Virus record (IMG/VR): IMGVR_UViG_3300009034_000010
Location: 1 to 64,000 of that record
DNA length: 64,000 nt
Source of the DNA: a virus
Reading direction: 5' to 3' (one strand)
Below are positions 1,554-22,270 of the stretch, in pieces. Position 1 is the first letter of the stretch. Every line of letters starts with the position of its first letter. Below the pieces are notes generated by a model. The model was not told where the DNA came from. It ran no database searches and saw nothing but the letters and a program-made list of their open reading frames with translations. A program made the translations under genes and the position numbers.

Positions 1554-3113
1554 TTATCTGTTAACATAAATGTTGTTAATAAGAGACTCTACACATGAAT
1601 ATGTAGCAGATATACTATATTCCTCTCTCAATATCTTACTACCTTCCTCTGCTTCTTTCAGTAACGCTTTATGATTATCTTTAGCATACTGAAGCTTTTC
1701 GCAAAGTTCTTTGAAGTCTGGTTCGTACCATTCTCCTTCTGCGTAAATCCCTTCTGCCTTTACCAATTCATTCTTTTCAACTCTCACAAAACCAGGCCGA
1801 TGATTATATTCTTTAAAACCAGAATGATTTGGAACTATGCATGGGGTTCCACACATAACACTCTGTATAGGAATCAAGCCAAGCCCTTCAGCTCTACTCG
1901 GAGTGACCGTCAAGTCACTTTGTTGAATCATCTCAACTAACTCAGAAGTAGACATAACATTACGAGTTATCAAGTATTTAGAATTATTCCCGTATTCTTT
2001 CATGATTTCTCTACTCATGTCCCCCAATGATTCAGACCAAGGCTTAGTATGAATCCTGATCCTAACTTTAGGATCATTGCCAAAAACTTCATCCATTGCT
2101 CTAACAAAAAGGTCAATTCCTTTCCGAGGAATACATGTTCCTAAGAAAAGAATATCAAAGTAATTTTCTTCTCCCTCCGCTTTCTCCCATCGCTGGTAAT
2201 TAAATACCGGATCGATAGGTTGCTTATATACAAATATCGAAGCTTTAACTCCACTATTTATATACACTTCTTTTACATATTCCGATGGAACAAACAAACC
2301 GTCTGCTGTGTTTGATACATTTACCCATGCGATATTAATCTTCGAAGCTTCCCAATATGTAAACAACAATATCCTTTTCGAATTACAAGCAGCTCTCATA
2401 TGAACAGGTAAAGTATTCACAATAGCAATATCGCATTCACCTGTTGCTTTTTTATCTTCAGGTATTCCTTTTACAAAATTCACGCTTTGTTCATCTGAGT
2501 TAATTAAACGAGGTTTAACTTTAATACCCCTTTTTAACATCTCATTAACAAGATGACAACTTACTGAACCTATTCCATCAGAGTACATAAACTGTGATAT
2601 AAATTCTATCGATTTATATGGCCTCTCCAGTTTACTGAACGGTCTCAATAACAATTTTGAAAATTGAAATAATTCTCTATTGTCATGTAAATTAAATCTA
2701 GGAACTTCAACAGGTTTTCCTTCGTACATTATGATATTAGTCTTAAAGTCTTTAACCATAAAATTTAACTTTATGAAACCAAGCTCTCTCCCATTATGAG
2801 AAACAGTAATTGTATATCGACCATAAGACCTTAACCATAAATTGTTTATTGTAAAAAATCCAGTATAATGGTCATCCCTCGTGGTACAACCAATTTCATT
2901 TGTTATAAACTTCTTTAATTCAACTCCCTCCGGCGAACGTACTACAATTTGTAATTTAGCCATACCTATAAAATCAGTAACTGAAAAGAATACTTTGAAG
3001 GTATATTTTTCTCCCAAGTATCCCCTAAGTGTATTAAACTGTCCCACAATAGTGTGGGTGCCTAATAATTCTTTCCTAACATCTTCACAAAAAATCAAAC
3101 TATTTAATTTCAT
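1554..3113 (-). CDS. Glycosyltransferase (GT4-like, GT-B) with an extra ~120-aa N-terminal beta domain
   Basis: Motifs FTYWE, VPSEY, PRKGID, PSRAEGLGLIPIQSVMCGTPCI. Confidence 0.85.
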   Translation of the reverse strand: MKLNSLIFCEDVRKELLGTHTIVGQFNTLRGYLGEKYTFKVFFSVTDFIGMAKLQIVVRSPEGVELKKFITNEIGCTTRDDHYTGFFTINNLWLRSYGRYTITVSHNGRELGFIKLNFMVKDFKTNIIMYEGKPVEVPRFNLHDNRELFQFSKLLLRPFSKLERPYKSIEFISQFMYSDGIGSVSCHLVNEMLKRGIKVKPRLINSDEQSVNFVKGIPEDKKATGECDIAIVNTLPVHMRAACNSKRILLFTYWEASKINIAWVNVSNTADGLFVPSEYVKEVYINSGVKASIFVYKQPIDPVFNYQRWEKAEGEENYFDILFLGTCIPRKGIDLFVRAMDEVFGNDPKVRIRIHTKPWSESLGDMSREIMKEYGNNSKYLITRNVMSTSELVEMIQQSDLTVTPSRAEGLGLIPIQSVMCGTPCIVPNHSGFKEYNHRPGFVRVEKNELVKAEGIYAEGEWYEPDFKELCEKLQYAKDNHKALLKEAEEGSKILREEYSISATYSCVESLINNIYVNR

Positions 3114-3122
3114 AAAAACACC

Positions 3123-3611
3123 TTAAATAACTCGCCCACTAACAGTATCAGTAAGCAGCATTACCCTTAAAAAAACTGATGACCTTCTTAAATTATCTTT
3201 TAAGTCACCTTCCTTAAGATTATCAAGAACAACTCGATCAACAGTAAAACGGCCATCACCATTCTTAACAATCAATTTCTCATTCGATATCAACACTGGA
3301 GTATCAGACTCAAAATCATATAAAGGAGTAACAACATTGGTAAGCTTATCCCTCAGTCTATCGAGAGCCACTGTTTCATCGTTTGAATATTCCTCACCCA
3401 CAATCCTTGATACAACATCAATTTCCATAGGAGAGTAAGTCTTCGCTCCAGCTCCTATTTCCTCGAAAGCCATAGTCAACCATATGTTATGGGTGGAAGT
3501 CTTAAATCTTAAATTCCCATAACTCACAGCATACCCATACGGAGTAGCTACATTCTCAGCGATATATTTATAAAATGAGCGTTCAATATTGCCATGTTTA
3601 ACTAAGCTCAT
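3123..3611 (-). CDS. Tail terminator/completion-like protein
   Basis: Size and position upstream of the tail tube; paralog of 3608-4180. Confidence 0.55.
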   Translation of the reverse strand: MSLVKHGNIERSFYKYIAENVATPYGYAVSYGNLRFKTSTHNIWLTMAFEEIGAGAKTYSPMEIDVVSRIVGEEYSNDETVALDRLRDKLTNVVTPLYDFESDTPVLISNEKLIVKNGDGRFTVDRVVLDNLKEGDLKDNLRRSSVFLRVMLLTDTVSGRVI

Positions 3612-4180
3612 ACTGTTCTACTCCTGGCATAATTCTTTAAAAGTTTCATCCTAACAGTTAACTGGGCAGCCTGTAATAAAGATGATATCCCATCAAACTT
3701 CAATTCTTCCACTCTCTCGTATACCTGTCTCGATAAACGCCTTTTCTTTCCTTCACGCATTATAACAATCTTACCATCTTGTATTCTCTGAGGATACTCA
3801 GGGTATGTAAAATCATATAAATCAATATCAGAATTAGTAAATAACTCTCGCAAATCATCAATTATAAATAAGAGTTGTGTGTTATACTTATCAGTAGATG
3901 CTATTTTCGTTATAACGTCTATATACGCTATTGAAAATTTTCCAGTTTCTACATTCAATTCTGAAAAATTACAATATAACCAGATCTCATGAATATTAAT
4001 ATTTATATTAACGTTCCCATAATAAACAGGATAACCGTAAGAATCTGCGTAATTTTCTTTTATGAATTTATAGACCGATCTTTCGAAATCTCCAATTCTC
4101 GTAAAAGGACTAAGATATTTCCGCCCGTACCCTTTTGTTACTATCAGCGAAGAAGACCCCAACCCTCTTGTTACTATCAT
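3608..4180 (-). CDS. Tail terminator-like paralog with an N-terminal IVTRG/IVTKG duplicated motif
   Basis: GDFERSVYKFIKENYADSYGYPVYYG aligns with GNIERSFYKYIAENVATPYGYAVSYG of the neighbouring gene. Confidence 0.5.
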   Translation of the reverse strand: MIVTRGLGSSSLIVTKGYGRKYLSPFTRIGDFERSVYKFIKENYADSYGYPVYYGNVNININIHEIWLYCNFSELNVETGKFSIAYIDVITKIASTDKYNTQLLFIIDDLRELFTNSDIDLYDFTYPEYPQRIQDGKIVIMREGKKRRLSRQVYERVEELKFDGISSLLQAAQLTVRMKLLKNYARSRTV

Positions 4181-20771: not shown

Positions 20772-20777
20772 ATAAAC

Positions 20778-21347
20778 CTACTTAACTATTTTTACAACAA
20801 TAGTCTCACCTAATTCTAAAAGTTCGTAGTTAACTCCATTGCGTTCAAATATGTCAACTAATTGACTTAACTCAAAAAATTGCTTATCATATTTTCCTGG
20901 AGAAACAAGATTGGCGTTAGGGGTAGTAATTATCGCCCAATTTTTTACCATTTTTTGTATTTTAACAATAAATTTCTCTGGATTATCTACATGCTCAATT
21001 ACTTCACTACAAACAATATACTCAAACCGTTTTCTATGATGTAATTTCTCAAAAGATTGTTGTTTCAATTCCATACGTCCTGTCTCACATGAATCTACAT
21101 ACAATTCTTTCCCCAACTCAATAGCTTTAGAACTGGTATCAATACCGAACACTTTTCTAGTTACACCTTTTTTAAGAAAAAGCTTACATAACAGACCTTC
21201 ACCACAACCAATATCAAGAATAGATTTTGCTTTGCAGCCATTAAATTCTCGTAATATCCTGTTAAGATGATTTCTATACCCATGTTTATTGTTACGAAAC
21301 CAATCTATATGATACGCACCATTTTTATCGTATTTATCAAATTCCAT
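20778..21347 (-). CDS. Class I SAM-dependent methyltransferase (UbiG-like)
   Basis: Motifs ILDIGCGEG, GID, CSEVIEHV, ITTPN. Confidence 0.9.
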   Translation of the reverse strand: MEFDKYDKNGAYHIDWFRNNKHGYRNHLNRILREFNGCKAKSILDIGCGEGLLCKLFLKKGVTRKVFGIDTSSKAIELGKELYVDSCETGRMELKQQSFEKLHHRKRFEYIVCSEVIEHVDNPEKFIVKIQKMVKNWAIITTPNANLVSPGKYDKQFFELSQLVDIFERNGVNYELLELGETIVVKIVK

Positions 21348-21358
21348 AATATCCTCGC

Positions 21359-22270
21359 TTAGTTTGTCATAAAATTAATGTATTCGTTCACCACATAGTT
21401 CATATATAAATCAGGACGAACACCAACTTTCTTCTTTAAAATCTCCTGCATTCCCCAATATAGAACATCAATATCAGGCTTAGGAGGTTTATACAAAGGC
21501 ACCCGATTGTATTTATAATCCTCTTCAAGCTTTAAAACAATACCATCTTCCTTTACAATTTCTTTTGTACCACCATTATGACTGCAAAGAACCGGCAAGC
21601 CAAGACCTAACATTTCATAAACTACATTTGGACTACAGTCCAACCAAGAAATATGAATCCCTGCATCGATACCCCGCATTACGAAAGGTAATTCCTTATG
21701 ATAAAGTTTGCCTGGATAACGAATATTCGGATGATCGTCTTTATGCTTACAATCTCCAAAAATAACCAATCCATAATTAAGACTTTTATCAAAACATTTA
21801 AAAGCCTCTATTACAGGCTCTAAGCGTTTATGTGCTCGCCAATCAGCAGAACACATGAAAGTCTTCTTAAATCCCCAATTAAATCCTTTACCGGCTTTAC
21901 AAAACGTATCAGGAACACCATTATAAATTACTTTATACAGAGCTTTTATTGGTCCGAAATGATGCTTATACTGTTCCACAGCAAATTTACTTTGAAAAAC
22001 AATCTTATCAAAAGTATTATACGCCTGTTTTATAGGAGCATTTAACTTGTCAGTATCTCCTATTGTATTCTCTAAGTCAAAGTATAAGTTATCTAATCGA
22101 AGAACGTTAACACTACCAGGTATTGTGGACCCAGTAGCGAAACAAATCTTATATTGAGGAAAAGCACCATTATGTAACCAATCCTTTTCCTTAAGGCCAT
22201 CGTGTAATCTTGATCCAAAAATACCAGGACCGTTTTTATCATTTACTGAAGTTATCTTAAAACTTGGCAT
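21359..22270 (-). CDS. Glycosyltransferase family 4-like
   Basis: Motifs GP..F, LRLD, VFQS, IYNGV, WRAHKRL, DCSPNVVYE..GLPV; paralog of 17607-18500. Confidence 0.9.
   Translation of the reverse strand: MPSFKITSVNDKNGPGIFGSRLHDGLKEKDWLHNGAFPQYKICFATGSTIPGSVNVLRLDNLYFDLENTIGDTDKLNAPIKQAYNTFDKIVFQSKFAVEQYKHHFGPIKALYKVIYNGVPDTFCKAGKGFNWGFKKTFMCSADWRAHKRLEPVIEAFKCFDKSLNYGLVIFGDCKHKDDHPNIRYPGKLYHKELPFVMRGIDAGIHISWLDCSPNVVYEMLGLGLPVLCSHNGGTKEIVKEDGIVLKLEEDYKYNRVPLYKPPKPDIDVLYWGMQEILKKKVGVRPDLYMNYVVNEYINFMTN

Follow-up and report, generated by a model that had tools for sequence, protein, structure and literature searches.

A glycosyltransferase-rich late operon in a divergent phage of gp23 type, with a GT9-fold, TibC-like gene next to that for the capsid, and its possible part in glycosylating the particle

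The window analyzed here is the first 64 kb of the 88,722-bp IMG/VR virus record IMGVR_UViG_3300009034_000010, which is of the linear class, has a GC content of ~34% and is ~53% complete according to CheckV. The minus strand of the window carries a late morphogenesis operon, from a divergent phage of gp23 type, in which structural genes are interspersed with seven supported glycosyltransferase (GT) genes, one candidate, and genes for an S-adenosylmethionine (SAM)-dependent methyltransferase and a PseH-like acetyltransferase. A first-pass annotation made from the DNA alone had described these genes as co-oriented with the structural ones, and every open reading frame (ORF) from 1 to 32819 is indeed on the minus strand. 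In the direction of transcription, a gene for an SNF2-type helicase is followed by those for the terminase, the portal, an HNH endonuclease and fibre-like proteins, then by an eight-gene block, a small gene, an RCC1-repeat gene, the S77 protease gene, the gp23-type capsid gene and ~10 others, of which hardly any could be assigned to a family. The Logan assembly of a sediment-metagenome run, probably that of the original sample, contains 94% of the sampled words of 8845-18545; no RNA data are listed for the stretch, and run X2 holds a small share only. The features that carry the argument are:

1554-3113, minus strand: GT4 enzyme of 519 amino acids (aa), with an N-terminal beta-sandwich (residues 1-136, DUF6941-like) and a retaining-type GT-B domain (residues 164-519)
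8845-9816, minus strand: predicted GT9-fold, TibC-like glycosyltransferase, 323 aa, the next gene after the capsid gene (AlphaFold model and 22 homologues)
9843-9884, minus strand: intrinsic-terminator-like hairpin (13-bp stem, 9-nt loop, U-run) between the capsid and GT9-like genes
9953-11152, minus strand: major capsid protein (MCP) of gp23 type, ending ...NITGS, the proposed acceptor (Pfam Gp23 E 4.9e-52)
14870-16717, minus strand: two-domain enzyme of GT2 (GT-A, DDD; Glycos_transf_2 E 1.9e-12, 47.9 bits, residues 3-92) and GT4 (GT-B; Glycos_transf_1 E 7.2e-20, 71.7 bits, residues 455-608) type
16723-17616, minus strand: GT2 glycosyltransferase without a membrane segment (Pfam Glycos_transf_2 E 1.7e-23, 83.8 bits; DAD motif)
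17607-18545, minus strand: GT4-type glycosyltransferase (Pfam Glyco_trans_1_4 E 2.3e-8, Glycos_transf_1 28.4 bits), the least conserved of the block (53% identity to the relative G001)
18502-19500, minus strand: probable GT-B glycosyltransferase (PHROG 7162 'glycosyltransferase' E 8.5e-13, residues 43-320, its sole family support)
19481-20026, minus strand: PseH-like GNAT N-acetyltransferase (Pfam Acetyltransf_3 E 6.9e-7; NCBIfam PseH E 8.9e-13)
20007-20771, minus strand: weakly supported candidate GT-A of 254 aa, from a mostly viral family with an invariant DxD
20778-21347, minus strand: class I SAM-dependent methyltransferase (Pfam Methyltransf_23 E 4.9e-18, Methyltransf_11 E 4.7e-14)
21359-22282, minus strand: GT4-type glycosyltransferase, first gene of the block (Pfam Glycos_transf_1 E 3.7e-7, 30.3 bits; PHROG 2170 E 9.9e-13)

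The eight genes of the block (14870-22282) overlap or are spaced by <=11 nt. They begin 5 nt after a fibre-like gene (22288-24165) and are placed between the portal and the protease and capsid genes, in agreement with the first-pass description of a block between fibre and head genes. Four genes of the operon (1554-3113, 14870-16717, 17607-18545 and 21359-22282) pass the gathering score of Glycos_transf_1 (PF00534; 26.4 bits), and two (16723-17616 and 14870-16717) pass that of Glycos_transf_2 (PF00535; 23.3 bits) and carry a DxD motif. When all six frames of the 88,722-bp record were searched, exactly these four Glycos_transf_1 and two Glycos_transf_2 matches were returned, all of them in the genes just named. 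The protein 18502-19500, recognized by its PHROG, has no match in Pfam, NCBIfam or PDB sequences, and BLASTP against the product of the overlapping gene 17607-18545 gave no useful match. Seven of the eight GT genes first proposed are thereby retained, five by Pfam, one by PHROG and one, the GT9-like gene, by structure; the eighth, 20007-20771, is just weakly GT-A-like.

This eighth protein has 451 library matches at E<=0.001 in a mostly viral family, in which D63 and D65 (DAD) and H161 are invariant. Glycos_transf_2 was touched by just four of the 50 homologues scanned, and the Atlas clusters of the family are mostly named 'hypothetical protein', one of them having PF00535 on 17% of its members. 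The protein itself has no Pfam, PHROG or NCBIfam match and none in the PDB by single sequence or profile, and hhalign of the family alignment against the GT2 gene gave nothing useful. Its sequence features thus point, if weakly, to a candidate GT-A.

The two tailoring enzymes proposed earlier both stand: the methyltransferase on its Pfam matches, and the acetyltransferase with PseH (TIGR03585) as its best NCBIfam match, at 48.6 bits against a cut-off of 93.1, so that it is PseH-like only. Neither the GTs of the block nor the other GTs have a membrane-type hydrophobic segment outside the core GT element; the maximum hydropathy of the GT2 enzyme 16723-17616 is 0.95. Domain and hydropathy scans of the record likewise bore out the statement that genes for sugar-nucleotide synthesis, a flippase or a polymerase are not visible. 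They found no priming phosphoglycosyl transferase, no polytopic membrane protein (no ORF with >=3 hydrophobic segments), and no Epimerase, NTP_transferase or DegT domain, that is, no epimerase/dehydratase, nucleotidyltransferase or aminotransferase. The absence of sugar-nucleotide genes is provisional, because the record is ~53% complete.

Directly behind the capsid gene, as first noted, lies the GT9-like gene, with its coordinates now corrected. The start codon at 9814-9816 is ATA in the record and ATG in the Logan contigs of run X1 (9814 T>C), and the homologues, which start ~31 residues upstream of the ATG originally listed, have Met there; the gene is therefore 8845-9816 and not 8845-9723, and the ATA probably reflects a minor variant or a mistake of the assembly. 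Leaving aside the window protein and a 171-aa fragment, we found 22 homologues, which are 317-348 aa long and have no precomputed Pfam domains. The motifs HALGD and DSGPLW are present, and four Cys (C283, C290, C297 and C303) are invariant. A single-sequence PDB search with the shorter frame 8845-9723 gave no match, and BLASTP between the GT9-like protein and the two-domain enzyme 14870-16717 revealed no shared module (best E 1.5).

The AlphaFold model of the GT9-like protein is of good quality (predicted local distance difference test, pLDDT, 86.9; predicted template modelling score, pTM, 0.87). Foldseek places a Veillonella GT9 protein, WaaC and TibC at its top ranks (E 5e-8 to 8e-7), and VIA-align gives Z 19.1 to the first of these (3tov; 258 aligned residues, root-mean-square deviation 3.0), 17.2-17.0 to WaaC, 17.1 to TibC and 16.9 to WaaF. 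The next ranks are three chains of the NDH-PSI supercomplex (Z 14.3-15.2), and other GT-B-fold glycosyltransferases and epimerases follow at Z ~10 (<=10.9 for GT-B enzymes outside GT9). By this model the product of 8845-9816 folds as a GT9-type GT-B enzyme. When compared with a viral structure library, the model came closest to proteins of uncultured phages that bear the names RfaF heptosyltransferase and 'Glycosyltransferase Aah/TibC'.

Among the GT9 enzymes, TibC alone aligns over nearly the entire model (4..323, 276 residues), while WaaC aligns from residue 54; the beta strands at residues 2-44 of the model may therefore have their counterpart in the N-terminal barrel of TibC, which is about twice as long. 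TibC is a soluble enzyme that heptosylates protein Ser in the cytoplasm, its acceptor being the passenger of the TibA adhesin before export; its iron finger of four Cys (C339, C342, C358, C370) is required for assembly and activity, and the D110A mutant is inactive (PMC4358343). The four Cys of the phage protein, present in all 22 GT9-like sequences, are located near the C-terminus, where TibC has its iron finger. D66 of the HALGD motif is also invariant in 22 of 22 and is a candidate counterpart of D110, the catalytic Asp of TibC in its N-terminal Gly-Asp loop.

Between the capsid and GT9-like genes, the minus-strand RNA of 9790-9960 folds at -48.4 kcal/mol (z -3.67), with none of 200 shuffles equally stable. 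A terminator at this point would leave the enzyme far scarcer than its substrate.

The MCP ends in ...NITGS, the C-terminal Ser having been pointed out in the first-pass annotation. It is the only one of the 212 ORFs of >=60 aa in the record with a GS end. A large protein collection yielded a clade of 18 capsid proteins with 49-94% identity, several on contigs of 37-103 kb, and the terminal Ser is found in all 20 aligned MCPs of the clade and the Gly-Ser end in 16 of them. The closest capsid protein from an isolated phage is 26% identical. In the mycobacteriophage Che8 (AY129330), the capsid protein ends ...NKTGS and the major tail protein ...YSDGS, such that the last three residues of the window MCP (TGS) are those of the Che8 capsid protein.

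A predicted complex of the MCP with the GT9-like enzyme passed our mark, with a score of 0.38 against 0.00 for the best of three controls, a contact agreement between runs of >=87% and a partner pLDDT of >=77. This mark is reached by 58 of 80 solved complexes and two of 110 mismatched pairs; at scores <=0.60 it is reached by seven of the 80 solved complexes and by both of the passing mismatches, a range in which a predicted contact is more often wrong than right unless it was likely beforehand. The pass would thus lend weak support to an association of the two proteins.

The GT9-like homologues are found on contigs of the same bp values as the capsid homologues, and the gene occurs in all cases where the contigs of the clade are long, from which it appears that it behaves as a core gene of the lineage. 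Two relatives were read in their gene context. G001 (29,045 bp; MCP 84% identical) preserves the gene order all the way from helicase to GT9-like gene, including the complete block, whose genes are 53-84% identical; the two-domain enzyme 14870-16717 is 78% identical. L085, a high-GC metagenome contig, has an MCP of just 23% identity ending in ...GAGS, and shows the order terminase, portal, S77 protease, gp23-type capsid and GT9, followed by an SU10-type adaptor and a tail tube. Its GT9 gene scores 29 bits with Pfam GT9, above the cut-off of 22, and has the four Cys as CxxC-x7-C-x5-C. The capsid-then-GT9 order thus persists to 23% capsid identity. An extra 159-aa ORF (9324-9803) in L085, between the capsid gene and the full GT9-like gene, matches the N-lobe alone of the GT9-like profile (E 1.6e-8); it represents a duplicate that was truncated or else a second copy with a frameshift.

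Further afield, a metagenome scan with the GT9-like alignment gave four loci, including G001 again and two short ones, while a scan of viral contigs with the capsid alignment gave distant relatives only (33-39% identity). Among 80 distant gp23-type loci there were no relatives of the GT9-like, beta-sandwich-GT4 or DxD families.

These observations lead to the proposal, to which we give an even chance, that the phage encodes a system for the cytoplasmic glycosylation of its own particle proteins, most likely those of the head. In a first step, the GT9-fold, TibC-like enzyme would prime the glycan by attaching a sugar to a Ser residue in one of the virion proteins, the best candidate acceptor being the conserved C-terminal ...GS of the MCP and the donor, if GT9 specificity holds, host ADP-heptose. 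The soluble GT2 and GT4 enzymes of the block would next extend the glycan with host nucleotide sugars, and the methyltransferase and acetyltransferase would tailor it. As a fourth step, the beta-sandwich GT4 enzyme 1554-3113, which is neck/tail-proximal, would serve another acceptor or a later stage. The benefit would likely be that the surface of the particle is shielded or tuned by a coat of glycans. It is solely the likeness to GT9 that suggests heptose as the sugar, and the glycan itself, with the 'long' or 'LPS-like' (lipopolysaccharide-like) nature ascribed to it, is read from gene content. A bolder version would have this gp23-type lineage build a complex hetero-oligosaccharide coat on its capsid, by TibC-like priming at a terminal ...GS-COOH, >=6 further soluble GT domains, methylation and N-acetylation, with the terminal Gly-Ser as a convergent, portable glycosylation tag shared with actinophage capsid and tail proteins, and virion glycosylation old and widespread; this we think rather unlikely.

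The remaining features of the operon that bear on these questions are:

955-981: strong terminator (12-bp stem and T-run) right behind 992-1540
992-1540, minus strand: 182-aa protein earlier labelled tail tube, ending ...KSV, with no family match
11215-12465, minus strand: prohead protease, in the context of the head module (Pfam Peptidase_S77 E 1.7e-14)
22288-24165, minus strand: fibre-like protein with a hydrophobic, signal-peptide-like N-terminus, an alternative acceptor (PHROG tail/minor-tail E 1.5e-16 to 2.5e-9)
26516-28180, minus strand: portal of T4 type, the block lying between this gene and the capsid gene (Pfam Portal_T4 E 3.7e-28)
28146-30530, minus strand: large terminase (PHROG 2, E 1.6e-14)
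30666-32381, minus strand: SNF2/helicase-type protein by Pfam, not the terminase

Several lines of evidence, from family assignment, from the capsid tails and from elsewhere in the record, weigh against the glycosylation of particle proteins. The GT9-like protein misses the Pfam GT9 (PF01075, Glyco_transf_9) cut-off of 22 bits, with 11.8 bits (E 0.15) for the window protein and 16.3 bits for its G001 homologue; it hits no NCBIfam family at E<=0.01, and the profile of its 22 sequences finds neither TibC nor WaaC among PDB sequences at E<=10. Nor do 22 distant gp23-type IMG/VR records (20-73 kb) contain a single GT1/4, GT2 or GT9 domain, which makes the GT load a trait of this lineage and not a general T4-like feature. 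Seven of the MCPs in these GT-free records end in Ser, two of them in GS; a C-terminal Ser or GS on the capsid is not specific to GT carriage. These records are 11-40% complete, so that GTs could lie elsewhere in their genomes. By the same token, the ~53% completeness of the present record means that missing pathway genes prove little. At the other end of the system, the gene adjoining the GT4 gene 1554-3113 could not be confirmed as a tail tube: its product (992-1540) gave no match in Pfam (E<=10), PHROGs (E<=1) or PDB sequences, and it ends in ...KSV and not in Ser. The claim of a GT directly upstream of the tail tube is therefore unconfirmed, and the idea of dedicated GTs beside their substrates draws its support from the GT9-type enzyme by the capsid gene and not from the tube pairing.

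As a separate observation on capsid tails, many of the MCPs of 570-635 aa at distant loci (L003-L081) have short tails of Gly, Ser, Ala and Thr, of which ...GATS is the commonest and ...ESGS and ...ESGAS also occur, while one subgroup ends in ...DLLG without such a tail.

On the same side stand the nearest NCBIfam names of the GTs, which are those of exopolysaccharide, teichuronic-acid and LPS enzymes (EpsE, TuaG, VpsD, an LPS GlcNAc-transferase and similar; EpsE and TuaG being the best matches of 16723-17616). They agree with an alternative in which the enzymes of the set, GTs and tailoring enzymes alike, have as their late targets the LPS core, capsule or other surface glycan of the infected host, as has been suggested for cyanophages rich in GTs; such remodelling could mask receptors, block superinfection or lessen the sticking of released particles to debris. 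The GT9 enzymes whose function is known are for the most part LPS heptosyltransferases, and WaaC and WaaF are close matches of the model (Z 16.9-17.2). There are also precedents, in that the 13 GTs of a cyanomyovirus were taken to act on the cell wall of its host (as mentioned in PMC12801897) and the heptosyltransferase I of a huge phage was read as an LPS auxiliary gene (as mentioned in PMC10747093). Nevertheless, all those NCBIfam matches fall far below the family cut-offs, and GTs that themselves lack membrane segments are not accompanied in the record by a phosphoglycosyl transferase for priming, a flippase, a polymerase or any polytopic membrane protein. The genes are wedged among portal, capsid and neck genes rather than gathered in a variable island, the adjacency of capsid and GT9 genes survives to the deep divergence of L085, and the N-terminal beta region and four-Cys module make the enzyme look more like TibC than WaaC. 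We therefore consider envelope remodelling unlikely.

A different target, DNA, is brought into play by the GT4 enzyme 1554-3113. This protein matches Glycos_transf_1 at E 4.6e-17 (62.5 bits) and GT4-conflict at E 4.4e-15, its N-terminal DUF6941 match (24.9 bits) lying below the cut-off of 27; the literature searched held no mention of DUF6941. Fifteen homologues of 506-524 aa have the same precomputed Pfam GT domains and are found on similarly long contigs. The AlphaFold 2 model (pLDDT 88.5) aligns over residues 164-519 with BshA (Z 30.3), HepE (30.1) and a GT of chlorovirus NY2A (29.7). BshA and also MshA, best neighbours of this model, are likewise the neighbours reported for phage DNA glycosyltransferases (bioRxiv 10.1101/2023.12.21.572611), a further point against particle proteins as the target. 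So are two genes outside the operon: one for a C5 cytosine DNA methyltransferase (70676-71590; E 1.5e-45) and one for a ThyS-like protein (55053-55832), which scores 94.7 bits against 174.55 and falls below every thymidylate-synthase cut-off. Because that score is so far below, the protein could, on sequence grounds, be a pyrimidine hydroxymethylase. Together, the two genes hint that bases of the DNA are modified by a route separate from the GT block.

In a second alternative, the GTs or a part of them might put mono- to oligosaccharides on hydroxymethylated pyrimidines and so protect the genome from host nucleases. The same preprint reports that phage DNA GTs of GT-B type resemble BshA and MshA, that heptose occurs on 5-hydroxymethylcytosine (5hmC) and that such clusters can adjoin structural genes. 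It also indicates that intact pathways usually cluster and that the DNA glycans are mono- to trisaccharides, whereas here the ThyS-like and methyltransferase genes are 33 kb and 48 kb off, on the other strand in the replication arm, and nine GT domains with tailoring enzymes exceed what such glycans need. The 88.7-kb record, at its ~53% completeness, has no Tet_JBP domain; the GTs are placed in the late structural operon; and the GT9-like model has GT9 enzymes and TibC as neighbours, with the T4 beta-GT absent from the 50 matches listed for either model. Hypermodification of DNA by these enzymes is, in our view, distinctly improbable.

Even if a particle protein is the target, it need not be the capsid protein. 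The block, which starts 5 nt behind the fibre-like gene, might modify this protein with its putative leader (22288-24165) as a fibre or exported, adhesin-like acceptor. Its hydropathy reaches 1.78 at residue 7, and the neighbouring protein 24180-24617 likewise has a hydrophobic, signal-peptide-like N-terminus, which is unusual for virion proteins; the precedent of TibC, with an adhesin (TibA) heptosylated before export (PMC4358343), would fit such an acceptor. The GT9-like gene, however, is 12.5 kb away from the fibre-like gene and sits beside the capsid gene in the window, G001 and L085, and the fibre-like protein, just 44-48% identical to its G001 homologue, has neither a Ser/Thr-rich tract nor a GS end. 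We give this variant a slim chance. Glycosylation of head proteins, with the MCP as the best candidate acceptor, is the most likely of these readings.

The rest of the operon adds a few observations of its own. On the neck/tail side, where PHROGs and Pfam searches of the ORFs at E<=1 gave nothing useful, BLASTP of 992-1540 and 8127-8879 against the tube and adaptor proteins of L085 showed no likeness. Just upstream of the GT4 gene 1554-3113 are two adjacent paralogues of no known family (3123-3611 and 3608-4180; 31% identity, E 2e-23), and 6099-6947 encodes a protein with a Laminin_G_3/concanavalin-like lectin domain (E 4e-18), which may bind carbohydrate as part of the virion. Genes for a sheath, a baseplate or a tape measure could not be recognized in the record, whose left end interrupts the operon; the tail module therefore probably lies beyond that end.

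The head module also includes, downstream of the block and ahead of the protease gene, an RCC1 beta-propeller protein of seven-bladed type (12602-14205; Pfam RCC1 E 1e-28), which may be a head decoration or fibre protein; the G001 counterpart, of 536 aa, scores 231 bits with WD40_RLD. Frameshifts split this gene (416 + 143 aa) and the neighbouring small gene (90 + 101 aa) in the record, at 12955-13033 and 14488-14513, whereas in G001 both are single ORFs, of 536 and 184 aa. The Logan contigs of run X1 have one additional nucleotide behind 12996 and two behind 14497. These insertions and the unsplit ORFs of G001 rule out programmed frameshifts in either gene, and the frameshifts are errors or variants of the record.

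A T4-type (gp23) lineage from sediment thus has a much larger set of GT enzymes than the known virion-glycosylating phages, and with it a candidate priming enzyme of TibC type that is open to test and whose gene stays beside that of the capsid even in deeply diverged phages. If particle glycosylation is confirmed, glycans on phage particles would be widespread, which bears on host recognition, on the stability of particles in sediment and on the visibility of therapeutic phages to the immune system. It would also bear on the annotation of 'auxiliary' GTs in viromes and provide a source of compact, soluble enzymes for protein glycosylation. Should the targets be DNA or the host surface instead, the locus would still represent an unusual late-operon GT module.

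The closest parallel in function comes from mycobacteriophages, in which glycans are reported at the C-termini of capsid and tail-tube subunits (Freeman et al. 2023, Cell Host Microbe, as cited in PMC12619734). Virion glycosylation has been shown experimentally for a few mycobacteriophages only, where it affects recognition by antibodies (as cited in PMC12619734 and PMC12801897). With Che8, Corndog and Myrna the present system shares phage GTs linked to particle proteins, and with Che8 the TGS end of the capsid protein; it differs in having an unrelated gp23-type capsid (392-399 aa), a sediment origin, a GT9/TibC-type enzyme and genes inside the head module, and it is predicted from gene content. 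There are seven to eight GT genes with nine domains here, as against typically a few in the actinophages. A literature search on glycosylated virions and fibres returned nothing relevant.

TibC and Aah (BAHT; PDB 4RAP, 4RB4; PMC4358343) offer the closest parallel in structure: a GT9-like GT-B domain, apparently likewise after a beta N-region, four Cys in an insertion of the C-lobe and no membrane segment, with Z 17.1 over 270-276 residues. The phage protein is shorter (323 against 406 aa), with an N-terminal beta region of ~50 residues in place of the 97 of the TibC barrel, and its Cys are spaced C-x6-C-x6-C-x5-C and not as in C339/C342/C358/C370. There is no match at the sequence level, and the acceptor would here be a capsid protein and not a beta-helix adhesin.

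WaaC, WaaF and the Veillonella protein 3TOV are the best fold matches (Z 17.2, 16.9 and 19.1) and share the HALGD-type and DSGP...GPT motifs, but they align only from model residue 46-54, being without the beta N-region. WaaC and WaaF act on lipid-linked Kdo at the membrane, and enzymes of this type are not known to have the four-Cys module. Chlorovirus PBCV-1 and the fibril clusters of giant viruses combine a multi-GT machinery with methyl and acetyl tailoring to make a complex capsid glycan in the cytoplasm. These are eukaryotic viruses with double-jelly-roll capsids and sugar-nucleotide pathways of their own; a GT of chlorovirus NY2A is among the top structural matches of 1554-3113, while genes for such pathways were not found in the record. 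Phage 5hmC clusters, in turn, resemble the locus in having several GTs of GT-A and GT-B type with relatives among LPS and teichoic-acid enzymes, with heptose possible and BshA and MshA as neighbours (Pyle et al., bioRxiv 10.1101/2023.12.21.572611); in the present record no 5mYOX was found, the GTs belong to a late operon, and the genes for the ThyS-like protein and the methyltransferase lie far from them.

By these analogies, the system would work like the virion glycosylation of mycobacteriophages and the heptosylation of TibC type, with a priming enzyme outside GT9 as Pfam and NCBIfam delimit it at the sequence level. The literature searched did not describe any enzyme of GT9 or TibC type whose gene is linked to that of a phage capsid. 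What is new relative to the known systems is the GT9-fold, TibC-like gene behind the capsid gene, its persistence in L085, and a TGS end on the capsid protein like that of Che8.

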